In this document: piece by piece, positions 18,415-40,146 of the stretch | Layout: each line of letters begins with the position of its first letter | Numbering within the stretch: the stretch's first letter is position 1 | Source of the DNA: Solirubrobacterales bacterium | Lineage (GTDB): Bacteria; Actinomycetota; Thermoleophilia; Solirubrobacterales; Solirubrobacteraceae | Assembly: GCA_025963905.1 (NCBI GenBank) | Contig: JAOPZW010000375.1 | Location: 1-52,519 of the forward strand | DNA: 52,519 nucleotides | Direction of reading: 5' to 3' | Made by a program: the position numbers and the translations under genes | The notes under the pieces: generated by a model | Database searches by the model: none | The model's input: only the letters and a program-made list of their open reading frames with translations | Told to the model about the DNA's origin: nothing

Positions 18415-18429
18415 CTAACGATCGTTCAC
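18415..18429. promoter_or_regulatory. Operator site 1: CTAACGATCGTTCAC (palindromic core AACGATCGTT at 18417..18426)
   Basis: On the minus strand it reads GTGAACGATCGTTAGCAT-AGCCGAC-ATG(18404), so the motif overlaps a TANNNT -10 box 7 nt from the start codon. Confidence 0.6.
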
Positions 18430-18456
18430 TCAGGACGCCAGGTGAGGGAGGCCAGG

Positions 18457-19194
18457 ATGCGCGACATCGCGCTCGTCGACACGTTCAACCTGCGCGACCT
18501 CGGCGGCTATCCCACGGTCGACGGCCGGCATGTCCGCTGGCGGCGCCTCTTCCGCGGCGCCGGGCTGCAGCGCCTGGACGGGGACGACCTGGAGATGGTG
18601 CGGGCGCTCGGCATCGTCACCGCGATCGACCTGCGCACCGACGGCGAGGTCGAGGCCACCGGCACCTACCCGGTCGGCCGGCTGCCCGCGACGTTCCACC
18701 ACCTGCCGATGATCGAGCGCATCTGGGACCTCGACGGTCTGGACCCCGGCGCGCTGGCCCACGATTACCTCGTGGACCGCTACCGCGACATGCTCGCGGA
18801 GGGCGCGCCGACCATCGCCACCATCATGGACCTCCTGACCCGCCCGGGCGCGCTCCCCGCCGCGTTCTACTGCGCCGCCGGCAAGGACCGGACCGGCGTG
18901 CTCGCGGCCCTCGTCCTGGGCGCGCTGGGCGTGGAGCCGGCCGCGATCGTCGCCGACTACCACCTGTCCAAGGAGCGGGTCGAGCGCATCCGGGCGCGTG
19001 CTCTCGCGGCGTCCGGCGCCGGCGCATCGGCGATGGTCGCCCAGCCGCCCGCGTTCATGCAGGCGCCGGCCGAGACGATGCAGCTGCTGCTGGCGTGGAT
19101 CGACGAGGTCCACGGCTCGACGCCGGGCTACCTCGCCTCGATCGGCGTCGCGCCGGCGACCGTCGACGCGCTGCGGGCCGCGCTGCTGGGGTGA
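18457..19194 (+). CDS. Protein-tyrosine/dual-specificity phosphatase-fold protein (Y_phosphatase3-like)
   Basis: CX5R active-site loop YCAAGKDRTG. N-terminal NLRDLGGY block. ATG 18457 is preceded by GAGGGAGG. Confidence 0.85.
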   Translation: MRDIALVDTFNLRDLGGYPTVDGRHVRWRRLFRGAGLQRLDGDDLEMVRALGIVTAIDLRTDGEVEATGTYPVGRLPATFHHLPMIERIWDLDGLDPGALAHDYLVDRYRDMLAEGAPTIATIMDLLTRPGALPAAFYCAAGKDRTGVLAALVLGALGVEPAAIVADYHLSKERVERIRARALAASGAGASAMVAQPPAFMQAPAETMQLLLAWIDEVHGSTPGYLASIGVAPATVDALRAALLG

Positions 19195-19204
19195 CCGCGC
19201 GCGT

Positions 19205-19220
19205 TTGGAGATCCCTCCAA
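19205..19220. promoter_or_regulatory. Palindromic motif A: TTGGAGATCCCTCCAA
   Basis: 15 of 16 positions are identical to 48969..48984. It lies 55 nt upstream of ATG 19276. The extended match GTTTGGAGATC...CGCCCGAC(C)AAC is shared with 49808..49836. Confidence 0.45.
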
Positions 19221-19275
19221 CGCCCGACCAACTCCACCGACAACGAGCGATGTGTCTTCGCCTAGCGTCGCCGTC

Positions 19276-20037
19276 ATGGCCCAGCGCTTGGATGGGACGG
19301 TCGCCCTGGTCACCGGTGCGAGCTCCGGCATCGGGGAGGCGACCGCTCGCGCGCTGGCCGGCGAGGGTGCGTCGGTGGCCCTCGTGGCACGCCGCGCCGG
19401 CCGGCTCTCCGCGCTCGCGGACGAGCTGGCCGGCGCCGGCGCGACCGCGCTGGCGATCGACGCCGACATCACCGACCAGGCGCAGGCCGCCGCCGCGGTC
19501 CAGCGCACCGTCGACGGGCTCGGCCGCCTCGACGTGGTGGTCAACAACGCGGGGGCGATGCTCAACGGGCCGATCGTCGGCGCGCCGCTGGAGGAGTGGG
19601 ACCGGATGGTCGCGGTCAACGTCAACGGCTTGTTGTACGTGTCCCACGCCGCGCTGCCGCACCTGCTGCGCGCGGCCGAGACCGAGCCGCGCCGCTGTGC
19701 GGACCTCGTGAACATCAGCTCGATCGCCGGCCGCTTCGCCAACCGCGGCGCCGGCGTCTACAACGCCACCAAGTTCGGCGTCCACGCCTTCAGCGAGTCG
19801 CTGCGCCAGGAGGTCACCCAGCGCCACGTGCGCGTCGCGGTGGTCGGCCCGGGCGTGACGGCGACCGAGCTCTTCGGTCACCAGCGGCCGGAGACGCAGG
19901 CGCGCTACGCCAAGATGTTGGCGGGCGTCGAGCCGCTGGACGCCGGCGACATCGCCGAGGCCATCACCTACATCGTGACCCGCCACCGCCGCGTGGCCGT
20001 CAACGAGGTGATCGTCCGGCCGACCGAGCAGGCCTAG
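19276..20037 (+). CDS. Classical short-chain dehydrogenase/reductase (SDR)
   Basis: Contains TGASSGIG, NNAG and S...YNATK. ATG 19276 is preferred over the GTG at 19252, which would give an atypically long N-terminus. Confidence 0.85.
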   Translation: MAQRLDGTVALVTGASSGIGEATARALAGEGASVALVARRAGRLSALADELAGAGATALAIDADITDQAQAAAAVQRTVDGLGRLDVVVNNAGAMLNGPIVGAPLEEWDRMVAVNVNGLLYVSHAALPHLLRAAETEPRRCADLVNISSIAGRFANRGAGVYNATKFGVHAFSESLRQEVTQRHVRVAVVGPGVTATELFGHQRPETQARYAKMLAGVEPLDAGDIAEAITYIVTRHRRVAVNEVIVRPTEQA

Positions 20038-20039: not shown

Positions 20040-20774
20040 CTAGTAGGAGATCGGCCCGCGCACGCCGCCGCCGGCCGCGATCGCGTCGCCGGTGATCGGC
20101 ACGCTGCGCGGGCTGGCGAGGAACGCGACGACGTCGGCGACCTCGGCCGCGTCGACCATCCGGCCGATGACGTTGCCCGACCCGTCCGCGTCGGGCGGGG
20201 TGCGCTCGGTGCGCGTCATGCCCGGATGGACGACCGTGACGTTGATCCCGGCCGGACCCAGCTCGTCGGCGAGGTTCTTGGTCATCGCCGCCACCGCGAC
20301 GTTGCGGACGGAGCCGACGACGGTGCCGCTCATCCGCGCGGCTAGCCCGGCGATGTTGATGATCCGGCCCCAGCCGCTCTCGGCCATCCCGGGCGCGAAC
20401 GCGCGGGCGCAGCGGAGGTAGCCCGCGACCTTCACGTTCACTTCCGTCGCGAGGTCGTCGTCGCGCAGCGGGGCGCCGGTGTTCGGCCGGGCCGCCGCGC
20501 AGACCAGGATGTCGATCGGGCCGCCGAGCTCGACCACCGCCCGCGCCGCCATGGCGGTCACGGCATCGTCATCGCCCGTGTCGGCCGGGAGCGCGACGAC
20601 GCGCCGGCCGGACGCGGCCGCCAGCTCGGCCGCGGTCGCCTCCGCCACATCACCGTCCCGCGCGACAAGCCCGACATCACAGCCCTCGGCCGCCAGCGCC
20701 GCGGCGACCGCCTTCCCGATGCCCTTGCTGCCGCCCGTCACGACGGCGCGGCGCCCCGTCAACTTGAGGTCCAT
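20040..20774 (-). CDS. SDR-fold protein with a substituted catalytic triad (likely non-canonical or non-catalytic)
   Basis: The Rossmann motif TGGSKGIG is intact. There is no YxxxK anywhere. By manual alignment Ser->Ala (NIAG), Tyr->Ser and Lys->Val (GSVRNV). Confidence 0.85.
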   Translation of the reverse strand: MDLKLTGRRAVVTGGSKGIGKAVAAALAAEGCDVGLVARDGDVAEATAAELAAASGRRVVALPADTGDDDAVTAMAARAVVELGGPIDILVCAAARPNTGAPLRDDDLATEVNVKVAGYLRCARAFAPGMAESGWGRIINIAGLAARMSGTVVGSVRNVAVAAMTKNLADELGPAGINVTVVHPGMTRTERTPPDADGSGNVIGRMVDAAEVADVVAFLASPRSVPITGDAIAAGGGVRGPISY

Positions 20775-20783
20775 GCCAAGACC

Positions 20784-21947
20784 CTACGCGCGCGGCTCGG
20801 CGAGCCCGAGCGAGCGCCCGACCAGCTCCAGCATGATCTCGCTCGTCCCGCCGAGGATGCGCTTGATCCGCGCGTCCGCGTAGGAACGGGCGATCGGGTA
20901 CTCCATCATGTAGCCGTAGCCGCCGTGCAGCTGCAGGCACGCGTCGATGATCCGCCCCTGCGCCTCGGTTGCCCACCATTTGGCCACGGCCGCGTCCTCG
21001 GCGCTGAGCTCGCCGCGGACGTGCGCCTCGATCGCGGCGTCGACGTGCGCGGTCGTCACCTGCGCCTCGCCGTGGCATGCGGCGAGCTTGAAGCGCGAGT
21101 TCTGGAACGTGCCGACCGGCCGGCCGAACGCGGTGCGCTCCTTGACGTAGTCGAGCGTGCGCTCCAGCGCGCCCCGCGCGGCGGCGACCGACGCGACCGC
21201 GATCGCCAGCCGCTCCTGCGCGAGGTTCTGCATCAGGTGGGTGAACCCGCGGCCCTCCTCGCCGATCAGGTTTTCACCAGGGACCTCGACCTCGTCGAAG
21301 AACAGCTCTGCGGTGTCCTGGGAGTGCGACCCGAGCTTGTCGAGGTTGCGCCCGCGCGAGAAGCCCTCCATGCCGTCCTCGAGCATCAGCAGCGAGATGT
21401 CGCTCGGCCGGCCGGTCGTGCCGGTGCGCACGGCGGTGATGATCACGTCGGCGTTGATGCCGTTCGAGATGAAGGTCTTGGCGCCCGACACGATGTAGTT
21501 GCCGTTCGACTTGCGGGCCCGCGTTCCGATCCCGGCGACGTCGGAGCCGGTCGACGGCTCGGTCATGGCGATGCCGGCGATGAGGTCGCCGTTGGCCAAT
21601 CCGGGCAGCCAGCGCTCCTTCTGCTCGGGATCGCCGAGCTCCAACACGTAGGGGAGGGCGACGTCGCTGTGCACCGACATCGCCATCTCGACGCCGACGA
21701 ACCCGCGCTCGGCCGCCTCCTCCAACAACACCGTGTTGAAGCGGAAGTCGTCGGCGCCGGCGCCGCCGAACTCCTCCGGCACCGCGGGGCCGAGGAAGCC
21801 GAGGCGGCCCCAGTGCCGCAGCACCTCGCGCGGGATCAGCCCCGCGCGCTCCCAGTCGTCGTAGACCGGCGCGACCTCCCGGTCCAGGTAGGAGCCAAAC
21901 GTCTCGCGGAGGGCCTCGTGCTCGTCGGTGAAGATCGTGCGCCGCAT
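20784..21947 (-). CDS. Acyl-CoA dehydrogenase (FAD-dependent; IVD/LCAD-like placement of the catalytic base)
   Basis: 387 aa. Contains MTEPSTGSD, FGRPVGTFQ and a C-terminal RILGGTSEIM (Gly where MCAD-type enzymes have the Glu). QERLAIA offers a candidate alternative base. Confidence 0.92.
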   Translation of the reverse strand: MRRTIFTDEHEALRETFGSYLDREVAPVYDDWERAGLIPREVLRHWGRLGFLGPAVPEEFGGAGADDFRFNTVLLEEAAERGFVGVEMAMSVHSDVALPYVLELGDPEQKERWLPGLANGDLIAGIAMTEPSTGSDVAGIGTRARKSNGNYIVSGAKTFISNGINADVIITAVRTGTTGRPSDISLLMLEDGMEGFSRGRNLDKLGSHSQDTAELFFDEVEVPGENLIGEEGRGFTHLMQNLAQERLAIAVASVAAARGALERTLDYVKERTAFGRPVGTFQNSRFKLAACHGEAQVTTAHVDAAIEAHVRGELSAEDAAVAKWWATEAQGRIIDACLQLHGGYGYMMEYPIARSYADARIKRILGGTSEIMLELVGRSLGLAEPRA

Positions 21948-21958
21948 GGCGACGACTG

Positions 21959-21973
21959 TAAACGATCGTTCAC
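21959..21973. promoter_or_regulatory. Operator site 2: TAAACGATCGTTCAC
   Basis: Minus strand: GTGAACGATCGTT-TACAGT-CGTCGCC-ATG(21947). Plus strand: TACTGT (21983..21988) + 6 nt + ATG 21995. Confidence 0.65.
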
Positions 21974-21994
21974 TGGCAGTGCTACTGTTCGCGC

Positions 21995-22930
21995 ATGGCG
22001 ACCACTGGCCCCGAGGACTTCCCGGCGCGGGTGACGGTGCGGGAGGTCGGTCCGCGCGACGGCTTCCAGAACGAGCCCGAGTCGATCCCGACGTCCGACA
22101 AGGTCCGGCTCATCGACGCGCTCGCCCGCACCGGCCTGACGCGCGTGGAGGTCGGCAGCTTCGTCCGCGCCGACGTCATCCCGCAGCTGGCCGACGGCGC
22201 CGAGGTGCTCGCCGGCATCGCGATCCCCGACGGCGTCGACGTCGCAGTGCTGGTGCCCAACCAGCGCGGCTGGGAGGCGGCGCTGCCGCACAAGGACCGC
22301 TTCGACGAGGTCATCGTCTTCCTCAGCGCGTCCGAGACGCACAACGTGAAGAACATCAACCGGCCGGTCGCCGACTCGCTCGCGACCGTCGAGTCGCTGC
22401 TGGGCCAGGTCCGCGACGCCGGCATCCGCCCGTTGGCGAGCATCGCCACGTCGTTCGGCTGCCCGTACGAGGGCCACGTCGACCCCAAGCGCGTCTACGA
22501 GTTGGCCGGGCGCATGGCCGCCGCGGGCGCCGAGGAGATCAGTTTCGGCGACACCACCGGCATGGCCAACCCGCGCCAGGTCCGGACCTTCTACGAGGAG
22601 GCGCTCGAGCGCCTGCCGGGCGTCGAGCTGACCGCCCACTTCCACAATACGCGCGGCTCGGCGCTGGCCAACGCGCTGGCCGCGCTGGAGGCCGGCGTCA
22701 CGAGCTTCGAGTCGAGCTTCGGCGAGCTGGGCGGCTGCCCGGTCCCGCCGGGATCGACCGGGAACATCGCAACCGAGGACCTGATCTCCATGCTCCACGA
22801 GATGGGCGTCGACACCGGCGTCGACCTCGCCAAGCTGCTCGACGCCAGCCGGGACGTGCAGCGCGTCCTGGGCCGCCCGCTGGGCAGCCACGTCCTGACC
22901 GCCGGACCGGTGGAGTGGGCCGATGAGTGA
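21995..22930 (+). CDS. Hydroxymethylglutaryl-CoA lyase
   Basis: Contains VREVGPRDGFQNE, HFHNTRG, GGCP and TGNIATEDL. Confidence 0.92.
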   Translation: MATTGPEDFPARVTVREVGPRDGFQNEPESIPTSDKVRLIDALARTGLTRVEVGSFVRADVIPQLADGAEVLAGIAIPDGVDVAVLVPNQRGWEAALPHKDRFDEVIVFLSASETHNVKNINRPVADSLATVESLLGQVRDAGIRPLASIATSFGCPYEGHVDPKRVYELAGRMAAAGAEEISFGDTTGMANPRQVRTFYEEALERLPGVELTAHFHNTRGSALANALAALEAGVTSFESSFGELGGCPVPPGSTGNIATEDLISMLHEMGVDTGVDLAKLLDASRDVQRVLGRPLGSHVLTAGPVEWADE

Positions 22931-23714
22931 CACGACCGTCGCCGCCGACGCGGTCAGCTGGGCGCAGGACAGCGACGGCGTCCTGACGATTCTGCTGAAC
23001 CGCCCACCGGCCAATGCGCTCGGGCTCCCGCTGATCGAGGGGCTGACGGCCGCGCTGGACCACGCCGACGCAACGCCCGCCGTCAAGGTGATCGTCGTCG
23101 CGTCGCGGATCGACGGGTTCTTCGCCGCGGGCGCCGACATCAAGCACATGGGGTCGATTGACGCCGAGGAGTTCGCCGCCTACGGCCGCGCGCTGCGGGC
23201 GCCCCTCAACCGCCTCGCGGTGTCCGAGCGCGTCTCGATCGCGGCGATCGACGGGCTGGCGCTCGGCGGCGGCCTGGAGCTCGCGATGGCCTGCACGCTG
23301 CGGGTCGGCAGCCGGCGTGCGAGCTTCGGCCTGCCCGAGGTCAAGTTGGGGTTGATCCCCGGCGCGGGCGGCACGCAGCGCCTGCCCAAGCTCGTCGGGC
23401 GCGGCCGCGCATTGGACATCATGTTGACCGCCCGCCAGCTCGAGGCCGCCCAGGCGCACGCCATCGGCCTGATCGACCGGCTGGTCGACGACGGGCAGGC
23501 GGAGCCGCACGCGTTCGCGATGGCGCACGAGCTGCGCGCGCTTTCCCAGCCCGCGCTGCAGGCCGTCATCCGCGCGGTCGACGTGTCGTTCGAGGTCCCG
23601 CTGCACCAGGGGCTGGTCCGCGAGGAGCGCCTGGAGCAGGGGCTGTTCGCCGAAGGAGAGGCCGCCGAGGGCATCGCGGCGTTCCTCGAGAAGCGACCGC
23701 CGCGCTTCGCCTGA
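22923..23714 (+). CDS. Enoyl-CoA hydratase/isomerase (crotonase) family protein
   Basis: Contains FFAAGADIK, GLALGGGLELAMAC and EGIAAFLEKRPPRF. 8-nt overlap with the lyase gene. Confidence 0.9.
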   Translation: MSDTTVAADAVSWAQDSDGVLTILLNRPPANALGLPLIEGLTAALDHADATPAVKVIVVASRIDGFFAAGADIKHMGSIDAEEFAAYGRALRAPLNRLAVSERVSIAAIDGLALGGGLELAMACTLRVGSRRASFGLPEVKLGLIPGAGGTQRLPKLVGRGRALDIMLTARQLEAAQAHAIGLIDRLVDDGQAEPHAFAMAHELRALSQPALQAVIRAVDVSFEVPLHQGLVREERLEQGLFAEGEAAEGIAAFLEKRPPRFA

Positions 23715-23736
23715 GGGCCGGCGATGACGACCTTCG

Positions 23737-25404
23737 ATGTCACGAGCCTGCACGGCCGCCGCGCCGACGCGCGCTTCAACCGTCTCGCCGGTCGGCGACC
23801 TCCTGGAGCGCGTCACGTGGGTATCGCCGGACCAGGAGGCGCTGGTCGGCTGGGAGGGCGCGTACGGCGAGCACGCCTTCGCGCGCGTGACCTACCGGCA
23901 GGCCGACGCGACCGCCAACCGCGTCGCCCGCGCGCTGCTCGCCGCCGGCCTGCGGCGCAGCGACCGCGTGATCATGTACTGCGACAACTCGGTCGAGGCA
24001 CTGCTCACGCTCGTCGGGATCGCCAAGGCGGGCCTGGTCGCCGTCCCGGTCAACCCGCTGATGGCGCCCGACGTCCTGCGGTGGGCGATCGAGCACGTCG
24101 AGGCGCGCTTCGCGATCGTCGACGCCGGCCTCTACCCGCGCGGCGCGCGTGCGTTCTCCGCCGCCGGCCTGGCGCCCGCGGTGACGATCCCGATCGGCGG
24201 CGACGAGCCTGCGGCCGGCGGTGTCCTGTTCTCCAACTGGCTCGCGGGCCACCCGGCGACCGAGGTCGAGGTCGCCGGCCCGCCGATCCACGCCGACGAC
24301 GTGTGGTCGCTGACCTTCACGTCGGGCACGACGGCGATGCCCAAGGCGGTCATGACGACGCACATGTACTCCTACATGGCGACCCAGACCTACACCTTGA
24401 GCTACCACCGCGGGCTGCTGCGGCCCAACCAGATGCGGGTCTGCAGCTTCCTGCCGATCGTCTACCACTGCGGCCATCACGCCGCGCTGTTGTCGGCGTG
24501 GATGGGCGGCGGCACCGCGATCGTCGGCCGCCGGCCCGACGCGCAGGGGATCGTCGGCGCGATCACGCGCGAGCGGGCGACGGCGCTCTGGGCGGGCTCG
24601 CCGATCCTGCTGACCGGCGTCGCCGACGCGGCCGAGGCGGACCCGGCCAGCGACCTGGCGAGCCTGACCGTCGCGCTGTACTCGTGGGCGACCATGCACC
24701 CCGACCTCGTCGCGCGCCTGCGTGCGCTGGCGGGCGACGACCTCGGACTCGTCGAGGTGTTCGGCCAGACCGAGGCCATGTCCTCGTTCCGCTTCTGGGC
24801 CGACGAGTGGCCGGAGAAGGTGGCGTCCTCGCGCGGGACGGTCAACCACGTCGGCGCGCCGACGCCGGTCATCGCCGCCGCGATCGTCGACGACCAGATG
24901 AACGACCTGCGCGACCGGCCGGGTGTGCCCGGCGAGGCCGTCTTCCGCGGCCCGGCGCTGGCCGCCGGCTACTACAAGGACGAGGCCGCGACCCGCGCGG
25001 CGTTCGACGGCGGCTGGTTCCACTCGGGCGACAGCTGCACCTACGAGCCCGACGGCCAGATGATCATGGTCGACCGGTACAAGGACGTGGTGAAGTCCGG
25101 CGGCGAGAACGTGTCCAGCCAGCGGGTCGAGGGCGCGGTGCTGCAGCATCCCGACGTCGCCCGTGTGGCGGTCATCGGCGTGCCGCACGACAAGTGGGGC
25201 GAGCTGGTGGCGGCGGTCGTCGTCGCGCGCGAGGGCGCGACGGTCGACGCGCAGGAGCTCACCGCCTTCTGCCGCGAGCGGCTGGCCGGCTACGAGACGC
25301 CAAAGCTCGTCTTCGCCGTCGACGAGCTGCCCGAGACGGTCGGCGGCAAGGTGTTGAAGTACAAGCTGCGCGAGCGCTATCGCGCGGCCGGCGCCACCGT
25401 CTAG
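23737..25404 (+). CDS. AMP-dependent acyl-CoA synthetase/ligase
   Basis: Contains FTSGTTAMPKAV, GWFHSGD, DRYKDVVKSGGENV and a terminal GKVLKYKLR. Confidence 0.9.
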   Translation: MSRACTAAAPTRASTVSPVGDLLERVTWVSPDQEALVGWEGAYGEHAFARVTYRQADATANRVARALLAAGLRRSDRVIMYCDNSVEALLTLVGIAKAGLVAVPVNPLMAPDVLRWAIEHVEARFAIVDAGLYPRGARAFSAAGLAPAVTIPIGGDEPAAGGVLFSNWLAGHPATEVEVAGPPIHADDVWSLTFTSGTTAMPKAVMTTHMYSYMATQTYTLSYHRGLLRPNQMRVCSFLPIVYHCGHHAALLSAWMGGGTAIVGRRPDAQGIVGAITRERATALWAGSPILLTGVADAAEADPASDLASLTVALYSWATMHPDLVARLRALAGDDLGLVEVFGQTEAMSSFRFWADEWPEKVASSRGTVNHVGAPTPVIAAAIVDDQMNDLRDRPGVPGEAVFRGPALAAGYYKDEAATRAAFDGGWFHSGDSCTYEPDGQMIMVDRYKDVVKSGGENVSSQRVEGAVLQHPDVARVAVIGVPHDKWGELVAAVVVAREGATVDAQELTAFCRERLAGYETPKLVFAVDELPETVGGKVLKYKLRERYRAAGATV

Positions 25405-27448: not shown

Positions 27449-27459
27449 GCCCGCCACTA

Positions 27460-27474
27460 TAAACGATCGTTCAC
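27460..27474. promoter_or_regulatory. Operator site 3: TAAACGATCGTTCAC
   Basis: Minus strand: GTGAACGATCGTT-TATAGT-GGCGGGC-ATG(27448). Confidence 0.65.
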
Positions 27475-27525
27475 CTCCTGCGCCACCGTAATCCCCAGTA
27501 GGCAAGCGAATCTGACAGCCAGCAG

Positions 27526-27539: not shown

Positions 27540-27561
27540 GGATGCTGGTACAGTCGGCGCC

Positions 27562-28338: not shown

Positions 28339-28387
28339 GCATGGAACCAGCAACGGCAACGGCGCGAACGCCGCAGGAGGAGACGCA

Positions 28388-31444: not shown

Positions 31445-31971
31445 GCGTGGCGGCGGCGGCTTCGGAAACGCTGCTGACGCGCCTCGCGGTCGAGGACTTC
31501 CTGTACGCCGAGGCCGCGCTGCTCGACGCCTGGCGCCTGGATGACTGGCTCGCGCTGTTCACCGAGGATTGCCGCTACTTCATCCCGGCGACCGATCTGC
31601 CCGACGGCGACCCGCGCGCGACGCTCGGGCTCATCGACGACGACCGCGCGCGCCTGCAGGGCCGCGTCGACCGCCTCAACAGCGCCAAGGCCTACCGCGA
31701 GTTCCCGTGGTCGCGCACGACGCGGCTGATCACGAACGTGCGGCTGCCGGCTGATGCGCCGGACACGGCGCCCGGCGAGCTGGCGGTCGCGGCGAACTGC
31801 GCGGCGTGGCGGTACCGCAAGGGCGACGAGCAGACGCTCGTCGGCGCGTTGGAGTACAGGCTGGCGCCGGCCGCCGACGACGCGCCCGCCGCCTTCCGCA
31901 TCCGCTCCAAGCGCGTTGTGCTGACCGCCGAGGCCCTGCGTCCGCACGGCACGCTGAGCATCATCTTGTAG
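31441..31971 (+). CDS. Ring-hydroxylating dioxygenase beta subunit (NTF2/SnoaL fold)
   Basis: The GTG at 31441 overlaps the alpha stop (GTGA). Contains FLYAEAALLDAWRLDDWLALFTEDCRYFIP and a C-terminal R.R.KRVVL. Confidence 0.85.
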   Translation: MSVAAAASETLLTRLAVEDFLYAEAALLDAWRLDDWLALFTEDCRYFIPATDLPDGDPRATLGLIDDDRARLQGRVDRLNSAKAYREFPWSRTTRLITNVRLPADAPDTAPGELAVAANCAAWRYRKGDEQTLVGALEYRLAPAADDAPAAFRIRSKRVVLTAEALRPHGTLSIIL

Positions 31972-31995
31972 ACGTAGGACAACGAGGAGAGAGAC

Positions 31996-32904: not shown

Positions 32905-32907
32905 CCG

Positions 32908-33666
32908 GTGCGCCGCTTCGAGGGGCGGACGGCGATCGTCACGGGCGCGGGCGGCGCGATCGGCGCCGCCATCGCCCGCCGGCTGGGCAGCGAGGGGGCG
33001 GGCCTGGTGCTCGCCGACCTCGACGATGCGACAGTGGACGCGACTGCGACGCAGCTGTGCGAGGCCTATGCCATCGATGTGGTCACCGTCTCCGGCGACC
33101 TCAGCGACGCCGCGGTCGCGCAGGCCGTGGCCGACGCCGCGCGCGAGCGCTTCGACCGCATCGACGTCCTGGTCAACAACGCCGGCGGCGGGGTGATCCT
33201 GCCGACCGAGGAGCAGACCGAGGCGACGCTCCAGGCCACGCTGGACCGCAACATCTGGACGGTCCTGCGCACGACGCTGGCCACGCTGCCGACCATGCGC
33301 GAGGCGGGCTACGGGCGCATCGTGATGATCGGCGCCGACTCCGTGCGCAACGGCCTGGACCGCCACGCGGTCTACAACGCCGCCAAGGGCGGGGTCCACG
33401 CCTTCGCTGCCGGCCTGGCGCGCGAGTACGCGCGGGCCGGGATCACCGTCAACACCGTCGCGCCGTGCGCGACCGCGACGCCCGAGCTGGCCGCGATCGT
33501 CGCGCGCTCGCCGGAGGTCGGCGAGGCCTTCACGCGCGTGATCCCGATGGGCCGCCCGGCGGCGCTGGAGGAGGTCGCCTCGGCCGTCGCCTTCCTCGCC
33601 TCCGACGAGGCGTCGTTCATCACCGGCCAAGTGCTCGGCGTCAACGGCGGCAGCACCATGAACTAG
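32908..33666 (+). CDS. SDR, cis-dihydrodiol / hydroxyacyl dehydrogenase-like
   Basis: Contains TGAGGAIG, NNAG and YNAAKGG. GTG start 3 nt after the dioxygenase stop. Confidence 0.9.
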   Translation: MRRFEGRTAIVTGAGGAIGAAIARRLGSEGAGLVLADLDDATVDATATQLCEAYAIDVVTVSGDLSDAAVAQAVADAARERFDRIDVLVNNAGGGVILPTEEQTEATLQATLDRNIWTVLRTTLATLPTMREAGYGRIVMIGADSVRNGLDRHAVYNAAKGGVHAFAAGLAREYARAGITVNTVAPCATATPELAAIVARSPEVGEAFTRVIPMGRPAALEEVASAVAFLASDEASFITGQVLGVNGGSTMN

Positions 33667-33678
33667 AACAGCGCCGTG

Positions 33679-33716
33679 TGCCCCCAACGGGGGGCAAGGA
33701 CTCCCCCCTGGGGGGA
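33679..33716 (+). terminator. Two tandem C-run/G-run hairpins (TGCCCCC-AACG-GGGGGCA; TCCCCCC-T-GGGGGGA)
   Basis: Read directly 13 nt after the SDR stop, in the 140-bp gap before SBP3. A related GAGTCCCCCCTG recurs at 33783..33794. Confidence 0.35.
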
Positions 33717-33806
33717 CGCCATCGCGCAACAGGGGCGTTAGACCTACACCTGCACCTGACCCGTCGTGGGCCGGGGCTCAGGGAGTCCCCCCTGCAGGAG
33801 AGAGGA

Positions 33807-35072
33807 ATGAGTGTGAGGATCAAGGTCTTTGCAGCGCTCGCCGCGCTGCTCGTGAGTGGCGGCCTCGCCGCCTGTGGGTCGAGCAGCAACGACAGCTCCG
33901 GAGGGTCGTCCACCTCGTCCTCGTCCTCGTCGTCGGCGAAGTCTGACGGGAAGCCGCTGAAGATCGGGCTGATCCCGCCTTCGAGCGGCGCGCTCGCGGT
34001 GTTCGGCACCGATGAGCTGAAGGGCTGGCAGGTGGCGGCCGACGAGGCCAACGCTGCCGGCGGCGTCGACGGCCACAAGGTCGTGTTGGTCAAGTCGGCC
34101 ACGGACGGTCAGCCGGCGACGACGATCCGCGCCGCACGCAAGCTCGCGACGCAGGACAGCGCCAAGTTCATCGGCGCGATCATGACGTCGCCGGAGCACG
34201 CCGCGTTGTCCAAGCAGCTCCCGGCCATCGGTGCGTTGAACTTCAACTCGACGGGCAAGGACGACGGCCTGATCGGCGCCGACTGCAGCCCCGACGCGTT
34301 CCGGTCGGTGACAGGGAGCGCCATGGACGTCAACGCGATCGCCGACTCGCTCTCCAAGCTGCCGGCGAAGACGTGGGCCATCCAGGCCGTCGACTACAGC
34401 ACCGGCCACTCCGCGGCCGCGGCGTTCACCGCCGCCGCCAAGAAGGCGGGCAAGACGGTCGTGCTCACGCAGTACGCGCCCCTGAACACGAGCGACTTCG
34501 GGTCCTACATCTCGAAGCTGAAGTCGGCCAAGGCCGACGGCCTGTTCGCCGTCGAGTACGGCGCCGACGGCGTCGCGTTCGTCAACCAGGGCGTGCAGTT
34601 CAAGCTGTTCGACCAGTACAAGACGGTCCTCGGCTTCAACATGGTGTCCGAGCCGCTGTTCAAGACGCTCGGCAAGAAGATCACCGGGTTCTACAACAAC
34701 GTCGGCTACGACGTCGACGCCGACAACCCGCTCAACAAGCAGTTCGTCGCCGAGTACAAGAAGGCCAACGGCGTCGACCCGTACTACGTGCCGGCCGACA
34801 CCTACATGGCCGCGCAGATCCTGTTCGCCGCGGTCAAGAAGGCCGGCAGCGTCGACCCCGACAAGGTCAAGGCGGCGCTGAAGGGCCTGTCGGTCCCCGA
34901 CCTCAGCGGCCAGAACATCAGCGTCGGCGCCGACGGCCAGGCCCTGCGGCCGTCCTACGTCGGCCAGGTGGTCGCCAAGGCCGGCGGCCCCGGCGGCCTC
35001 GGGTTCAAGATCGTCTCGACGACCCCGGCCTCCAAGACGCACCCGTCGGACAGCCCCGACTGCAAGATGTAG
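33807..35072 (+). CDS. LivJ/Peripla_BP_6-type ABC substrate-binding lipoprotein (SBP3)
   Basis: ATG 33807 follows GGAGAGAGG. Lipobox LAAC and a poly-Ser linker. Colinear with SBP1 and SBP2. Confidence 0.9.
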   Translation: MSVRIKVFAALAALLVSGGLAACGSSSNDSSGGSSTSSSSSSSAKSDGKPLKIGLIPPSSGALAVFGTDELKGWQVAADEANAAGGVDGHKVVLVKSATDGQPATTIRAARKLATQDSAKFIGAIMTSPEHAALSKQLPAIGALNFNSTGKDDGLIGADCSPDAFRSVTGSAMDVNAIADSLSKLPAKTWAIQAVDYSTGHSAAAAFTAAAKKAGKTVVLTQYAPLNTSDFGSYISKLKSAKADGLFAVEYGADGVAFVNQGVQFKLFDQYKTVLGFNMVSEPLFKTLGKKITGFYNNVGYDVDADNPLNKQFVAEYKKANGVDPYYVPADTYMAAQILFAAVKKAGSVDPDKVKAALKGLSVPDLSGQNISVGADGQALRPSYVGQVVAKAGGPGGLGFKIVSTTPASKTHPSDSPDCKM

Positions 35073-35184
35073 GTCTAGTCCACCACCACCGACCCGTCCT
35101 CCCGTGCGGGCCCGAACAGGGCCTGCCCGGGAGCGGCGACTCCCCGACCCGAACCGACGACACCACCTTGACGACGGAGCACCC

Positions 35185-36039
35185 GTGAACCTCGCCCAAG
35201 TGCTCAACGGCCTGGCCCTCGGCGCCTTGCTCATGATCCTGAGCTCCGGCCTCGCCCTCATCTACGGCCTGCGCGGAGTCATGAACTTCTCGCACGGCGC
35301 CCTCTACATGTTGGGGGCCTACCTCGCCTACGAGGTGACAAGCCAGGGCCTGTCGTTCTGGCTGGCGCTGATCCTCGCCCCGCTGGGGCTCGCGATCGTC
35401 GGCGCCGCCCTCGAGCTCGGCTTCTTCCGCCGGCTGCAGCGCCGGTCGCACATCGAGGTCGGCCTCGTCACCTTCGGCATCGCCCTGGTGATCGACCGCC
35501 TCATCGTGATCGTCTGGGGCGACAACACGCTCCCGGTCCGCGCGCCCAAGGCCGTCGACGGGACGACCAACGTCTTCGGCACCGACTACCCGACCTACCG
35601 CCTGCTGATGATCGTCGTGGCGATCGCGATGGCGGCCGCGCTGGTGCTTTGGCTGCGTAACAGCCGCGTCGGCCTGCACATCCGCGCCGCCAGCCACGAC
35701 ACCGAGACCTCCGGGATCCTCGGCATCAACGTCGACCGCGTCAGCCTCGTGGTCGTCATGCTCGGCGGCGCGCTCGCCGGGCTGGCCGGCACGCTGGCCG
35801 CGCCGTACTTCTCGGTCTCGCCGGGCATGGGCCAGTCGATCCTGATCACGGTGCTGATCGTGGTCGTCGTCGGCGGCATCGGCAGCGTCGGCGGCGCGAT
35901 GGCCGCCGCGCTCCTGCTCGGCCTCGTCCAGATCATGGGCAACGTCTGGCTGCCGAGCGTCGCGGTGCTCGTGCCCTACGCGCTCCTGATCGTGGTCCTG
36001 CTGTGGCGACCCACCGGGCTCGCCGGGAAGCGAGTGTGA
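35185..36039 (+). CDS. Branched-chain-amino-acid-type ABC transporter permease (LivH family)
   Basis: The GTG at 35185 gives VNLAQVLNGLALGALLMILSSGLALIYG.. with FSHGALYMLGAY. 284 aa, multi-TM. Confidence 0.85.
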   Translation: MNLAQVLNGLALGALLMILSSGLALIYGLRGVMNFSHGALYMLGAYLAYEVTSQGLSFWLALILAPLGLAIVGAALELGFFRRLQRRSHIEVGLVTFGIALVIDRLIVIVWGDNTLPVRAPKAVDGTTNVFGTDYPTYRLLMIVVAIAMAAALVLWLRNSRVGLHIRAASHDTETSGILGINVDRVSLVVVMLGGALAGLAGTLAAPYFSVSPGMGQSILITVLIVVVVGGIGSVGGAMAAALLLGLVQIMGNVWLPSVAVLVPYALLIVVLLWRPTGLAGKRV

Positions 36040-37145
36040 TGAGCTCCGTGCCAACCGCCGTGTCCACCGACGACCCCGCCGTCGTCCCGGACCTCGATGA
36101 CGACGCGGGCGGGATGCTCGACGGCCGCGTGTCCGTCGGCCTGGAGCGCCGCGTCGTACTGCGGGGCGCGATCGTCGCGGCCGTCGTCCTGGTGCTGGGG
36201 CTGTTCGTCCCCAACATCATCACCGACTCCTATGACATGGGCGTGGCCGCCGACGGCGTCGTGCTCGGGATCATGGCGATCGGCATCGGCTTCCTCGCCC
36301 ACCGCTCGGGCCTGATCAGCCTCGGCCACACCGCGTTCTACGGCGGCTCGGCCTACGGGCTGGCGATCGCCACGACGCACTGGGGCTGGTCGCCCACCTC
36401 GGCGGCGCTGTTCGCGGTCGTCGGCGGGACGCTGCTCGCGGTCGCGATCGGCGCGCTCGTCATCCGCATCACCGGCTTCGGGTTCCTGATGCTGACGCTC
36501 GCGTTCGGCCAGGCGCTGTACGCGGTCAGCACGCTCACCAGCGTGCGCAGCGTGACCGGCGCGTTCGACGGCATCTCGGTCACCTACGCCGGCGAGAACA
36601 CCAAGTTCCTGGGGATGACCCAGGCCCAGCTCGGCGCGCCGCATACGTTCTGGCCGCTGGCCTGGATCTCCCTGGTCGTCGTCGCCTTCGGGCTGTGGCT
36701 CGTCGGGCGCTCGCGCTTCGGCGTGACGCTCGAGGCGATCCGCGACAACGAGGAGCGCGCGCGGTTCTCGGGCTACAACACCTACCTGCCGCGGCTCGGG
36801 GGGTTCGCGATCTCGGGCGCGTGCGCGTCGATCGCCGGCGTGCTCTTCGCGCTCAAGGCGTCCTACGTCTCGCCCGACGTGCTCGGCTTCCAGCTGGCGG
36901 GCGACTCGCTGATCGCGACGATCGTCGGAGGCTTCACGATCCTCGTCGGCCCGGCGATCGGCGCCGTGTTGTACATCTACGCCCAGGGCAAGTTCGGCGA
37001 CACCGGCAACCTCGAGTTGTACATGGGATTGGCGCTGATCGTCACGGTGATCTTCCTGCCCGGCGGCGTCACCGGCTGGGTGGTCGAGCAGTTCCGGCGG
37101 CTGCGAACGCTGGTCGCCGGCCGGAAGGGGGCGAGCCGATCATGA
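36039..37145 (+). CDS. Branched-chain-amino-acid-type ABC transporter permease (LivM family)
   Basis: TGATG junction with the preceding gene. Contains SGLISLGHTAFYGGSAYG. Multi-TM. Confidence 0.85.
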   Translation: MSSVPTAVSTDDPAVVPDLDDDAGGMLDGRVSVGLERRVVLRGAIVAAVVLVLGLFVPNIITDSYDMGVAADGVVLGIMAIGIGFLAHRSGLISLGHTAFYGGSAYGLAIATTHWGWSPTSAALFAVVGGTLLAVAIGALVIRITGFGFLMLTLAFGQALYAVSTLTSVRSVTGAFDGISVTYAGENTKFLGMTQAQLGAPHTFWPLAWISLVVVAFGLWLVGRSRFGVTLEAIRDNEERARFSGYNTYLPRLGGFAISGACASIAGVLFALKASYVSPDVLGFQLAGDSLIATIVGGFTILVGPAIGAVLYIYAQGKFGDTGNLELYMGLALIVTVIFLPGGVTGWVVEQFRRLRTLVAGRKGASRS

Positions 37146-37852
37146 GCGGCGCTCCCGTGCTCGAGGCGTCCGGCGTCACGCTGCGCTACGGCGCGGTCGT
37201 GGCGGTCGACGACGTCGACATCGCGGTGGCGCCCGGCGTCCTACACGGCGTCATCGGGCCCAACGGCGCGGGCAAGTCCTCGTTCATGGACGCGCTCAGC
37301 GGTCGTCGCAGGCTCAGCGCCGGGACGGTCATGCTCGGCGGCGAGGACATCACGCGGCGCAAGGTCGCCTGGCGGCGCACGCACGGGATGGCGCGCTCGT
37401 TCCAGAAGACGAGCGTCTTCAACTCGATGTCCGTGCGCACGCAGCTGGAGATGGTCGCGCGGCGCAATCGCGAGGAGGACCTCGACAGCATCGTGCACGC
37501 GTTCGCGCTCGAGCCCTACCTCGACCAGCCGTGCAGCGCGATCTCCTACGGGTTGCAGCGCTCGGTCGACATCGCCATGGCCTTGATCGGCAAGCCGCAC
37601 GTCGTCCTGCTCGACGAGCCCGGCGCCGGGCTGTCCCAGGAGGAGTCGGTGCGCATGCTCGACCACATCCGGGCGCTGTGCAGCGAGCGCGACGTCGCGG
37701 CGGTACTCGTCGAGCACGACGTCGACGGCGTCTTCCGCGTCTGCGACGAGGTCACCGTGCTGTCGCTCGGCACGGTGCTCGCCTGCGGCAAGCCCGCCGA
37801 CGTCCGCGCGAACCCCGCCGTGATCGAGGCCTACCTCGGGAGCCAGGCATGA
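37142..37852 (+). CDS. ABC transporter ATP-binding protein (LivG family)
   Basis: ATGA overlap. Walker A GPNGAGKSS, signature-like ISYGLQRS, Walker B VVLLDEPGAG. Confidence 0.9.
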   Translation: MSGAPVLEASGVTLRYGAVVAVDDVDIAVAPGVLHGVIGPNGAGKSSFMDALSGRRRLSAGTVMLGGEDITRRKVAWRRTHGMARSFQKTSVFNSMSVRTQLEMVARRNREEDLDSIVHAFALEPYLDQPCSAISYGLQRSVDIAMALIGKPHVVLLDEPGAGLSQEESVRMLDHIRALCSERDVAAVLVEHDVDGVFRVCDEVTVLSLGTVLACGKPADVRANPAVIEAYLGSQA

Positions 37853-38541
37853 CCCCGCTGCTGGAGATCGATGACATCTACGCGTCCTACGGTGGCGCGC
37901 TCGTGCTGGACGGCGTCTCGCTGTCGGTCGACGAGGGCGAGACCGTGGGGCTGATCGGACGCAACGGGGCGGGCAAGTCCACCACCTTGCTCTCGATCTA
38001 CGGCGTGCCGACTGTGCGCGGCGAGATCCGCGTCAGCGGCAAGGCGCTCGGCAAGCGGCAGTACGAGCCGGCTTCGCGCGGCGTGAGCCTCGTCCCACAG
38101 GGTAAGCGGATCTACCCCAACCTGACGGTCGAGGAGAACATCATGTTGGGCCGCGCCTCGGGCCGGAAGGGCGCGTGGACGGTGGCGAGGCTGAAGGAGC
38201 TTTTCCCCAACCTGGCGCGCGCGTCCGGGCGGCCGGGCAACCAGCTCAGCGGCGGCGAGCAGCAGATGCTCGCGATCGCGCGGGCGCTGATGGCCGAGCC
38301 GCAGGTGCTCCTGCTCGACGAGCCCACCGAGGGCCTCGCGCCGGTGATCATCGACGAGCTGATCGACGCGCTGCGCGTCATCCAGGAGGCGGGCACCGCG
38401 CTCGTCCTCGTCGAGCAGCACATCCGGATGGTCCAGCAGCTCGCGACGCGCTTCGTCGCCCTCGGCAAGGGGCGCGTCGTGACGCAGGGCGCCGTCGGCG
38501 ACCTGGAGACGCGCGCGGTCCAGCAGCTGGTCGCACTATGA
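37849..38541 (+). CDS. ABC transporter ATP-binding protein (LivF family)
   Basis: ATGA overlap. Contains GRNGAGKST, LSGGEQQML and LLLDEPTEGL. Confidence 0.9.
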   Translation: MTPLLEIDDIYASYGGALVLDGVSLSVDEGETVGLIGRNGAGKSTTLLSIYGVPTVRGEIRVSGKALGKRQYEPASRGVSLVPQGKRIYPNLTVEENIMLGRASGRKGAWTVARLKELFPNLARASGRPGNQLSGGEQQMLAIARALMAEPQVLLLDEPTEGLAPVIIDELIDALRVIQEAGTALVLVEQHIRMVQQLATRFVALGKGRVVTQGAVGDLETRAVQQLVAL

Positions 38542-38545
38542 CGGC

Positions 38546-39334
38546 GTGGCGATGATCACGGCACCGGTCCAGGCGGAGCTGGCGTTCGCCGAGGAGGACG
38601 GCGTCGGCGTCGTCTACCTCGACGCCGGCCCGCGCAACGTCCTGAGCCCGCAGCTGCTGCGCGCGTTCATGGTGGCGTTGGACGACTTCGAGGACCGCTC
38701 GGCGCGCGTGCTGGTCATCGCCTCGGCGCTGCCCGGCGTGTTCGCCTCGGGCGGCGACGTCGAGCACCTCAGCCGCAGCGACTCCGCCGGGTTCGTCGCG
38801 TACATGCACGCGATGCGCGAGGTGCTGGACCGGATCGACGGGCTGCGCGTGCCGTCGATCGCGGCCATCAACGGTGCCGCGTTGGGCGGCGGCCTGGAGC
38901 TGGCGCTGGCGTGCACGCTGCGCGTCGCGGGCGCGGGCTCCCGGCTCGGCCTGCCGCAGGTCAAGCTCGGGGTGATCCCGGCCGCGGGCGGGACCCAGCG
39001 GCTGCCGCGCCTGGTCGGGCAGGGCAAGGCGCTCGACCTGCTGGTGACCGGCCGGACGGTCGAGCTGCAGGAGGGCTACGAGATCGGGCTGATCGACCGG
39101 CGCGCCCCGGCGGGGCAGTCGCTGGCCGTCGCGTTGGAGCTGGCGCGCGGGATCGCGGCGGTGTCGGTCCCGGCGGTCAAGGCGGTGCGCCGCGCGGCCG
39201 AGGCGGCGGCGGGCCGCTCGTTCCCCGAGGGCATGACCGTCGAGGCGCGCGAGGCCCTCGCGCTGTTCGAGCACGGCGAGGCGCGCGAGGGGATGGCGGC
39301 CTTCCTGGACAAGCGACCGCCGCACTTCGCATGA
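38546..39334 (+). CDS. Enoyl-CoA hydratase/isomerase family protein
   Basis: Contains FASGGDV, GAALGGGLELALAC and EGMAAFLDKRPPHF. The start is GTG 38546 or ATG 38552. Confidence 0.88.
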   Translation: MAMITAPVQAELAFAEEDGVGVVYLDAGPRNVLSPQLLRAFMVALDDFEDRSARVLVIASALPGVFASGGDVEHLSRSDSAGFVAYMHAMREVLDRIDGLRVPSIAAINGAALGGGLELALACTLRVAGAGSRLGLPQVKLGVIPAAGGTQRLPRLVGQGKALDLLVTGRTVELQEGYEIGLIDRRAPAGQSLAVALELARGIAAVSVPAVKAVRRAAEAAAGRSFPEGMTVEAREALALFEHGEAREGMAAFLDKRPPHFA

Positions 39335-39768
39335 TCGGGACGCTGGTCGACGAGTACACGTTCGCGGTCGAGCCCGGCAAGGTGCTCGAGCTCGCGCGGG
39401 CGATCAAGGACCCGGCGGCCCGCTACGTGGATGCGGGGGCCGCGCGCGAGGAGGGCTTCACGGGCGTCCCGGCGCCGTTGACCTACACCGTGGTCGCGGG
39501 GCATCACCGCGACGCCGCGGCGGCGGTGGAGCTGCTCGGGCTGGACATCGCGCGGGTGGTCGTGGGCGAGGTCGGCTGGGAGTACGAGCGGCCGGTCGTC
39601 GTGGGCGACGTCCTGCACGGCCGGCGCACGGTCGTCGACGTCAAGCGCAAGGCGGGTTCGCGCGGCGGCGGGATGACGTTCGTGACGCTGGAGACCGAGT
39701 TCTTGGACGCGGGCGGCGACGTGGTCGTCCGCCAGCGCGAGGTCCTGATCGAGACGGGGCGCTCATGA
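39331..39768 (+). CDS. MaoC_N / FAS1-like hot-dog protein (HadA/ChsH-type non-catalytic hydratase subunit)
   Basis: ATGA overlap. 145 aa with YTFAVEPGKVLELARAIKDP and no hydratase motif. Confidence 0.8.
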   Translation: MIGTLVDEYTFAVEPGKVLELARAIKDPAARYVDAGAAREEGFTGVPAPLTYTVVAGHHRDAAAAVELLGLDIARVVVGEVGWEYERPVVVGDVLHGRRTVVDVKRKAGSRGGGMTFVTLETEFLDAGGDVVVRQREVLIETGRS

Positions 39769-40145
39769 GGCCTCCTGAGCTCACCGTCGGCCCTATCACG
39801 CGGACCGACATCGTGCGGTTCGCCGGCGCCGGCGGCGACTTCAACCCGCTGCACCACGACGAGGAGTACGCGCGCGCCGCGGGTTCCCCGACGGTCTTCG
39901 CGATGGGGCAGATGCAGGCCGGCATGTTGTCGCGGTTGGCAACCGACTGGCTGGGTCTGGACGCGATCGAGTCCTACAAGGTGCGCTTCAGCGCGAAGGT
40001 CTGGCCCGGTGACGTCCTGACGCTCCGCGTTGCCGAGCAGGAGCGCGACGGCGACCGCGTGGAAGCGGTGCTGGAGGCGGTCCGTCAGGACGGCGAGGTG
40101 GCCGTCCGCGCCTGGGTGCGTGCAATCGACATAAACGATCGTTAA
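39765..40145 (+). CDS. MaoC-like (R)-specific enoyl-CoA hydratase/dehydratase catalytic subunit
   Basis: ATGA overlap. Contains the hydratase motif GDFNPLHHD. 126 aa. Confidence 0.85.
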   Translation: MRPPELTVGPITRTDIVRFAGAGGDFNPLHHDEEYARAAGSPTVFAMGQMQAGMLSRLATDWLGLDAIESYKVRFSAKVWPGDVLTLRVAEQERDGDRVEAVLEAVRQDGEVAVRAWVRAIDINDR

Positions 40146-40146
40146 C
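40132..40146. promoter_or_regulatory. Operator site 4: TAAACGATCGTTAAC, overlapping the MaoC stop codon
   Basis: Plus strand: AAACGATCGTTAACAT-CATGACC-GTG(40156). The -10-like TAACAT is at 40143..40148. Confidence 0.55.

Follow-up and report, generated by a model that had tools for sequence, protein, structure and literature searches.

A palindromic operator shared by acyl-CoA transcription units of a Solirubrobacterales bacterium, and a candidate GAF-PucR regulator that may read it

Which protein, if any, reads a short perfect palindrome, AACGATCGTT, that recurs at the promoters of acyl-CoA enzyme operons in a soil actinobacterium? The question is raised by a stretch of 52,519 nucleotides from a Solirubrobacterales bacterium (assembly GCA_025963905.1, contig JAOPZW010000375.1), which we refer to in its entirety as the window. 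The Thermoleophilia, to which the Solirubrobacterales belong, are abundant soil actinobacteria, and as far as we know the regulation of their genes has gone essentially unstudied; a literature search for PucR-type regulation in Solirubrobacter-like bacteria found no paper. A first-pass annotation of the window had proposed that the palindrome is a shared operator linking acyl-CoA transcription units, and this proposal is borne out here: the sequence is enriched, it lies on promoters, and in the genus Baekduia it is conserved while its flanks diverge. The conserved operator and its regulon are real. As for the protein, comparison of sequences leads us to assign a probability of roughly 0.68 to the reading that the sites are operators of a dimeric or tetrameric GAF-PucR transcription factor encoded within the window itself (42599-44398), most likely an autoregulated repressor that is released by a ligand. 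Autoregulation is proposed because the gene of this factor sits in the operon headed by the site at 40134.

The annotation had counted four copies of AACGATCGTT, and exact copies do occur in the window at 18417, 21961, 27462 and 40134 only, as against none in 100 dinucleotide-preserving shuffles. The variant AACGCTCGTT, which it had described as a one-mismatch copy, is also present, one base away from where it had been placed (27527-27536, not 27528-27537); the label of mismatch was misleading, since the central dinucleotide varies freely among orthologous sites, where AT, CT, AG, AC, TA, TC and GT are all encountered. Nor is the core absent from the remainder of the 52 kb, where the annotation had not seen it. 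A further AACGnnCGTT copy, AACGTACGTT, lies at 40913, and a second site that had escaped attention, GTGAGCGCGCGTTAAC, is found at 208-223 and precedes the gene for enoyl-CoA hydratase that starts at 242. When the centre is relaxed, AACGnnCGTT has six matches in the window where 0.38 would be expected; because the window has a G+C content of 72.5%, a palindrome bearing A and T is intrinsically rare in it. From 22 pooled sites the operator unit emerges as a palindrome of 16 bp, GTnAACGnnCGTTnAC, whose central dinucleotide is free and whose optimum is GTTAACGATCGTTAAC. Its half-sites are about 10 bp apart, or one helical turn, their outer position is T in 36 and C in 7 of 44 cases, and the conserved flank reaches GT.../...AC.

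A weight matrix for this 16-mer was built from the pooled sites, with three of the related loci that we compare below under L-numbers (L084, L091 and L096) kept out of its construction. Scanned over the window and related DNA, a check of the kind that the annotation itself had advocated for the genome, it returned seven window sites of at least 15 bits. In 1.37 Mb of related Solirubrobacterales DNA the same matrix made a single match of at least 12 bits, an AT-rich chance match in L077, and the corresponding expectation is 0.04 per 52.5 kb. This background consists of the DNA around non-syntenic genes for 3-hydroxy-3-methylglutaryl-CoA (HMG-CoA) lyase: of 80 loci carrying relatives of the window's lyase, 77 were non-syntenic and without the motif, and these were reused as the background set. 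One-mismatch cores at 19242 and 12019 scored below 8 bits and were not counted as sites. A literature search for the literal AACGATCGTT brought up only unrelated primers and microRNAs.

The seven sites are named S0 to S5 and S3b. S0 (208-223; GTGAGCGCGCGTTAAC, 16.7 bits with the weight matrix) has its centre at -26.5 relative to the ATG of gene 242-1105, which encodes the enoyl-CoA hydratase, and is followed by a -10-like TAGGGT at 230-235; the AGCG variant that it carries also precedes enoyl-CoA hydratase genes in L087, L088 and L033. S1 (18414-18429; GCTAACGATCGTTCAC) separates a gene for a B12-binding-domain protein (minus strand, ATG at 18404) from a phosphatase gene (plus strand, ATG at 18457); its centre is at -17.5 from the former start, part of it coincides with the minus-strand -10 hexamer TAGCAT (18412-18417), and it is kept in L001 (454) and L002 (7089). 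S2 (21958-21973; GTAAACGATCGTTCAC), which is likewise kept in L001 and L002, lies in the 47-nt divergent region between an acyl-CoA dehydrogenase (ACAD) gene and the HMG-CoA lyase gene. Its centre is at -18.5 from the ACAD ATG (21947), with a -10 TACAGT at 21955-21960 on the minus strand, and at -29.5 from the lyase ATG (21995), with a -10 TACTGT at 21983-21988. S3 (27459-27474; ATAAACGATCGTTCAC) is centred at -18.5 from the ATG of an ACAD-like gene (27448, minus strand) and overlaps its -10 TATAGT (27456-27461). S3b (27524-27539; AGTAACGCTCGTTAAC) is centred at -30.5 from the ATG (27562) of a gene for a BadH-like short-chain dehydrogenase/reductase (SDR), the -10 of which, TACAGT, is at 27549-27554; the orthologous sites in L001 and L002 carry AACGATCGTT.

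The last two sites are less conventionally placed. S4 (40131-40146; ATAAACGATCGTTAAC) overlaps both the end of a MaoC gene (39765-40145) and a -10 TAACAT (40143-40148), and its centre is at -17.5 from GTG 40156, the putative leaderless start of a gene resembling acyl-CoA synthetases (ACS-like). The distance to the -10 is what points to this GTG as the start; L084 has an ATG at the equivalent position and keeps S4 with an identical -10 and an identical 7-nt spacing to that ATG. The annotation had placed every copy of the palindrome in a promoter-proximal gap, and for the 40134 copy this is incorrect: it encodes the N-D-R-TAA end of the MaoC gene, and the gap from that stop to the next annotated ATG (40150) is 4 nt. 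The same codons, AAC GAT CGT TAA, close the MaoC gene in the window (40134-40145) and in L084 (7598-7609), and the operator also forms the end of an unrelated acyl-CoA ligase gene, as A-N-D-R-stop in L088 (9864-9879) and as A-N-A-R-stop in L089 (9481-9496). S5 (40910-40925; GTGAACGTACGTTCAC) lies about 760 nt downstream of S4, within the coding sequence of the ACS-like gene, and its core at 40913 is the centre of an 18-bp perfect palindrome. At the orthologous intragenic position in L084 (8329) the palindrome is kept, as AACGATCGTT, despite a T-to-S residue change and diverged neighbouring codons. Such a site may be an auxiliary operator that acts by DNA looping or as a roadblock.

Where do these sites stand with respect to transcription? 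All seven site-adjacent first genes have a TANNNT starting 12-13 nt before the start codon, as against 4 of 27 other genes, with a chance estimate of about 1e-22 for the 7/7 placement; all seven are also without a Shine-Dalgarno sequence. A TANNNT near the start codon without a Shine-Dalgarno sequence is the signature of leaderless actinobacterial promoters. A scan around the sites for E. coli-type -35/-10 pairs found no -35 elements, and the site-bearing promoters appear to be -10-only and mostly leaderless. The distances of the site centres, for which the start codon is taken as the transcription start, fall into two classes. In the first (-17.5 to -18.5; the B12-domain, ACAD, ACAD-like and ACS-like genes) the first 3-4 bp of the -10 hexamer fall within the operator, and in the second (-26.5 to -30.5; crotonase 242, the HMG-CoA lyase and the BadH-like SDR) the operator lies over the -35 zone. 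Because both classes, on these assumed starts, fall inside the footprint of RNA polymerase, the geometry argues for repression.

The constant company of a -10 hexamer, and the PvuI and Dam-type palindromes that the sequence contains, might also suggest something other than a transcription factor site, namely a promoter element of an alternative sigma factor, a restriction or methylation target (CGATCG, GATC), or a short dispersed repeat. We regard this as very improbable. The distance from site to -10 takes two distinct values, and both half-sites are conserved even beside a single promoter; the particular case of an extracytoplasmic-function sigma -35/-10 pair (GAAC ... CGTC) was rejected on the 13-nt spacing and the two-fold symmetry of the site. 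The central dinucleotide, which defines CGATCG and GATC, is precisely the part that differs between orthologous sites, whereas the outer AACG/CGTT and the GT/AC flanks are fixed. Finally, no similarity among the sites extends beyond the 16 bp plus the -10, and coding sequence is essentially free of the motif.

The comparison with relatives shows how tightly the element has been held. Those closest in this comparison are metagenome-assembled genomes of Baekduia sp., with an HMG-CoA lyase 87-88% identical to that of the window and about 85% DNA identity over 9 kb. Sites occur at the orthologous positions of S1, S2, S3 and S3b in Baekduia L001 and L002, and at the positions of S4 and the intragenic S5 in L084. 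In the alignments with L001 and L002, the 16-mers and the neighbouring -10 hexamers stand as conserved islands in otherwise diverged intergenic DNA; the approximately 45 nt between S3 and S3b cannot be aligned at all. No RNA family turned up when the whole window was scanned with Rfam, so these islands do not correspond to known RNA elements. A more distant HMG-CoA-lyase locus, L033, carries five sites, which lie beside ACAD, BadH-like SDR and HMG-CoA lyase genes, and the regulon therefore extends beyond Baekduia.

What protein might bind such a site? The annotation had concluded that the gene for the regulator must lie outside the window, and had overlooked a PucR-type gene 2.5 kb downstream of the fourth copy of the palindrome. 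This gene (42599-44398, plus strand), which we consider the candidate cognate regulator, encodes a protein of 599 aa in which Pfam recognises an N-terminal GAF domain (residues 22-164; 43.7 bits against a cut-off of 22.4), a GGDEF-like domain (GGDEF_2, residues 347-470; 48.2 against 24.5) and a C-terminal PucR-type helix-turn-helix (HTH) domain (HTH_30, residues 523-581; 63.7 against 27). Residues 329-571 align to the C-domain of MabR (PDB 9f80, E = 1.5e-13), and no NCBIfam equivalog was reached. The gene overlaps both of its neighbours, at its start with the stop of the MaoC gene before it and at its stop with the start of the SDR gene after it, an arrangement of translationally coupled genes.

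The main argument for this assignment comes from orthologues fetched from public assemblies. In L084 (82% identity) and L091 (56%), a site heads an ACS-MaoC-regulator operon, as in the window. In L087, L088 and L089 (47-51%), which are three different genomes from one sample, the gene order has been rearranged, yet the unit with the regulator is again preceded by a site. In L087 this site is in the region between the divergent ACAD and regulator genes, in L088 it occupies the 3' end of an acyl-CoA ligase gene immediately ahead of the regulator, and in L089 it stands before a MaoC-regulator pair. Further sites in these three loci flank crotonase-hotdog-MaoC, thiolase and ACAD genes. A search of metagenomes with the aligned regulator proteins returned 79 loci and provided a new orthologue, L096 (46%), with five sites, all of which flank acyl-CoA enzymes and two of which are just upstream of the regulator in an ACAD/regulator divergent region; no other regulator is present in this locus. 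Altogether a site stands before the regulator's transcription unit in seven lineages and in five different gene contexts. Among 76 loci of distant homologues (at most 41% identity; 0.70 Mb), the sole site of at least 12 bits is one 12.2-bit match within a coding region. A strong site before the regulator's unit is thus found in 7 of 8 orthologue lineages and in none of the 76 distant homologues (Fisher p = 1.8e-9), and for the held-out loci that had not entered the matrix the figures are 3 of 4 and 0 of 76 (p = 4.9e-5). When the DNA upstream of 32 distant homologues was searched for perfect AT-rich palindromes of other sequence, none was found. Within the Solirubrobacterales the motif was thus met strictly in company with orthologues of at least 46% identity, and the GAF-GGDEF_2-HTH_30 protein is the only DNA-binding protein found near the sites in every lineage. 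Over-representation, placement on promoters, conservation at orthologous positions, association with one regulator clade and a site before the regulator's own gene, by which comparative genomics recognises a regulon, were all found.

The annotation had instead inferred a TetR-family, PaaR-like and acyl-CoA-responsive repressor encoded elsewhere in the genome, a possibility that we judge unlikely. A palindrome of 14-16 bp over the core promoter is typical of TetR repressors, and the effector of PaaR (TTHA0973), the TetR-family phenylacetate repressor of Thermus thermophilus, is an acyl-CoA. PaaR sites, like those of the window, overlap the promoters of CoA-dependent catabolic operons; their promoter-derived consensus, CNAACGNNCGTTNG, which the annotation had given correctly, has the same AACGnnCGTT core as the window sites (PMC6651687), and only some 52 kb of the source genome is open to inspection. 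The likeness is confined to this 10-bp core: the full 14-bp consensus is not matched, the outer bases being GT.../...AC here and C.../...G in PaaR, and the PaaR optimum obtained with REPSA, AACnAACGTTnGTT, differs and is in another register. PaaR belongs to a different protein family, and Thermus and the Thermoleophilia to different phyla, so that a resemblance of motifs is weak evidence. Nor are the usual targets there, for the window has no paaABCDE, paaK or paaZ set, and one crotonase has a sub-threshold PaaG-like NCBIfam score. As the annotation had stated, the window holds no TetR gene (no TetR_N match in Pfam; a best E of 0.12 in tblastn with three TetR proteins), and none stands beside any site in L001, L002, L033, L084, L087-L089, L091 or L096; the one TetR gene seen, in L093 (15609), has no site nearby. 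The motif tracks the GAF-PucR orthologues, and a TetR protein would leave unexplained that the site follows the PucR-type gene through rearrangements.

Three other regulators are encoded in the window, a GntR/HutC-type protein with a UTRA domain (12283-13068), an OmpR-type winged-helix protein (12980-13768) and a large AAA/BTAD protein (1748-4789), and one of these could in principle bind the sites. Their genes are 5-16 kb from the first site, and a spacing variant, GTGAACGcCGTTGT, with one central base and not two, abuts at 12260 the leaderless-type -10 TAGGGT of the GntR/UTRA gene 12283. None of the three recurs near the sites in L084, L087-L089, L091 or L096, and the half-sites of the 12260 element have the wrong spacing; the element as a whole (12257-12283) could be a decayed site, the site of another protein, or chance. 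HutC-type operators (GTnTAnAC) and the direct repeats of OmpR/SARP-type proteins are unlike this palindrome. Binding of the sites by one of these three proteins is, in our estimation, quite improbable.

How does the GAF-PucR factor compare with the characterised members of its family? The founder, PucR of Bacillus subtilis (purine catabolism), is autoregulated and represses promoters that its box overlaps or that have the box downstream. Its box, WWWCNTTGGTTAA, is not palindromic, unlike the window operator, and PucR itself has no GAF domain and belongs to a different phylum and a different pathway. MabR (Rv2242) of Mycobacterium and FasR, its orthologue in Streptomyces, which regulate the genes of fatty-acid synthase II, resemble the window regulator in combining a GGDEF-like domain with a C-terminal PucR HTH. 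MabR, likewise from the Actinomycetota, is linked to lipid metabolism and acyl-CoA sensing, and it binds palindromic inverted repeats as a dimer or tetramer, as is proposed for the window regulator; its response is to long-chain acyl-CoAs (PMC5541348). The recognition helices of the MabR dimer are about 34 Å apart, which fits adjacent major grooves (PMC11617747), and the PucR-family proteins AdeR, PrcR, MabR and GabR all bind inverted repeats as dimers (PMC13599513). The 16-bp palindrome is consistent, by analogy, with dimeric HTH binding to inverted repeats. MabR differs in having a globin-like N-domain where the window regulator has GAF; it activates transcription, and its sites are at -87 and -147 relative to the transcription start, whereas the window sites overlap the -10/-35 zones; its targets are fatty-acid synthase II genes and not catabolic acyl-CoA enzymes; and the operator sequences are unrelated. 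EtnR1 of Mycobacterium sp. NBB4 (ethylene/epoxide catabolism) shares with the window regulator a GAF domain, a CdaR-like region and a PucR HTH, as well as an actinobacterial origin, a catabolic cluster with CoA/CoM-type chemistry and membership of a broad and mostly uncharacterised regulator group (PMC11197473). It is, however, an activator that requires a MEDS-domain partner, EtnR2, and its binding site is undefined, in contrast to the precise operator proposed here. The neighbours of the regulator in the window, L084, L087-L089, L091 and L093 include no MEDS-domain gene, and the geometry of an EtnR-type activator is not seen, the site centres lying at -17.5 to -30.5 from the assumed starts.

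Several points weigh against the assignment of the sites to a GAF-PucR repressor. Nearly all characterised members of the family are activators, with sites upstream of the core promoter (PMC13599513, PMC5541348, PMC11197473), B. subtilis PucR being described as an exception with a dual activator/repressor role (PMC13599513); the repressor geometry suggested here would be atypical for the family and depends on inferred transcription starts. The link between regulator and operator rests on co-occurrence, and this is partly confounded with taxonomy, for the clade that bears the orthologues could share an unlinked regulator. The L093 orthologue has only a weak site (13.5 bits, with the exact core), far upstream before a long operon in which the regulator gene comes last. 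The recognition helix, VHENTVRYRL, provides no signal of specificity, because it is invariant even in a 38%-identical homologue, the locus of which lacks the motif.

If the GAF-PucR factor is nonetheless the cognate protein, we infer its mode of action as follows. It would bind the 16-bp palindrome as a dimer or tetramer and, while unliganded, would block RNA polymerase at the -10 or -35 zone of -10-only promoters, and in this way would repress at least seven transcription units, its own included. Release would be brought about by a pathway metabolite acting at the GAF or the GGDEF-like domain, for which an acyl-CoA or the acid substrate of the ligases is a candidate, and the intragenic S5 might stabilise repression by looping. 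The wider generalisation, that an uncharacterised Solirubrobacterales clade of GAF-sensor PucR proteins represses through a palindrome over leaderless -10 hexamers a large CoA-catabolic regulon, probably for alicyclic or aromatic acids, is more tentative, and we would put it somewhat below an even chance.

Which genes would such a regulon comprise? The gene map was established from codon-position GC and from Pfam and NCBIfam scans, which largely confirmed the gene labels of the first-pass annotation. S1 heads a minus-strand operon (16948-18404) in which the B12-binding-domain protein (17979-18404) is followed by a DUF7064 protein (16948-17982). The former reaches the NCBIfam cut-off for the acyl-CoA mutase C-terminal domain family, and it stands alone in the sense that it is paired with the DUF7064 protein and not with a mutase large subunit, none of which was found in the window. 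Divergent from S1, on the plus strand, are a tyrosine-phosphatase-family gene (18457-19194) and an SDR gene (19252-20037). The membership of this unit (18457-20037) in the putative regulon is uncertain because the phosphatase gene has a Shine-Dalgarno sequence and no recognisable -10. S2 heads a minus-strand unit (20040-21947) of the ACAD (20784-21947) and an SDR-like gene (20040-20774), for which the earlier label of pseudo-SDR is a fair one, its translation lacking the catalytic Tyr and Lys; this SDR-like gene has a leaderless-type -10 of its own and is present in L001 and absent from the close relative L002. On the other side, S2 heads a plus-strand operon (21995-25404) of HMG-CoA lyase, a crotonase and an acyl-CoA ligase, the lyase scoring above the NCBIfam cut-off for the HMG-CoA lyase subfamily. 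S3 heads a minus-strand operon of the ACAD-like gene (26375-27448), which is IpdE2-like and without the middle domain, and a quinone oxidoreductase (QOR) gene (25401-26381).

On the plus strand S3b heads the transcription unit or units from 27562 to 40145, which encode the BadH-like SDR, a BadI/MenB-like crotonase, a fumarylacetoacetate hydrolase (FAH)-type protein, the alpha and beta subunits of a Rieske dioxygenase and an extradiol dioxygenase, and farther on an SDR, a Liv-type ABC transporter, a crotonase and a hot-dog pair. The weight-matrix scan found no site before the transporter gene 33780; L087, unlike the window, has a divergent region between transporter and crotonase with two sites. 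S4 heads the plus-strand unit 40150-47074, in which all junctions overlap or abut: the ACS-like ligase (40150-42120), MaoC (42117-42602), the GAF-PucR regulator (42599-44398) and SDR, QOR and QOR genes (44395-47074). The gene order of this unit is also seen in L084, L091 and L093. From 27562 to 47074 the genes form a co-directional run of about 19.5 kb with near-abutting or overlapping junctions, and the S4 promoter and operator are embedded in the middle of it. In NCBIfam the SDR comes closest to BadH, the crotonase to BadI/MenB and the ligase to acetate-CoA ligase, all below equivalog cut-offs. Because a core of ACAD, BadH-like SDR, BadI-like crotonase, thiolase and CoA ligase or transferase is conserved across the lineages, the enzymes suggest a CoA-dependent pathway for degradation of an alicyclic or related acid.

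The remainder of the window has features of its own. A duplicated module (4738-7678 and 9060-11928; 70-80% DNA identity) contains genes for a DUF7065/DUF7064 protein, an APH-type phosphotransferase and a small ORF, and the pairing of DUF7064 with APH is also met near the regulator in L087-L089. Chemistry that combines APH-type and ACAD enzymes is known from 4-hydroxyacyl-CoA catabolism. There are three paralogous Liv-type periplasmic binding proteins (7700-9072, 13943-15181 and 33780-35072; 65-74% DNA identity), and only one of their genes belongs to a complete ABC transporter operon. Towards the left end, a BadF/BadG/BcrA-type ATPase gene (1248-1721) is a C-terminal fragment, and a matching metagenome contig, L081 (366-668), has a transposase HTH gene just past the left edge of the window, which suggests that this border has been rearranged.

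What would the finding mean for these bacteria and for the PucR family? It leaves the general principles of gene regulation unchanged. Its interest lies in a concrete pair that can be tested cheaply, a regulator and its proposed operator of 16 bp, from a class of bacteria that has barely been studied, and in a regulon with defined members: acyl-CoA ligases, dehydrogenases and hydratases, ring-cleavage enzymes of the BadH/BadI-like kind, a Rieske dioxygenase and an ABC transporter. The operators take up so little room that some coincide with the final codons and stop of an upstream gene, and one is conserved inside coding sequence. The set of promoters and regulator would offer a ligand-responsive system for high-GC hosts. 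The characterised members of the PucR family are mostly activators, and for several of them no binding site has been defined; to this family the finding would bring a DNA motif and, probably, repression as a mode of action. If the assignment is true, this would be the first GAF-PucR regulator with a defined operator and regulon, and no regulon would have been described earlier in the class Thermoleophilia.

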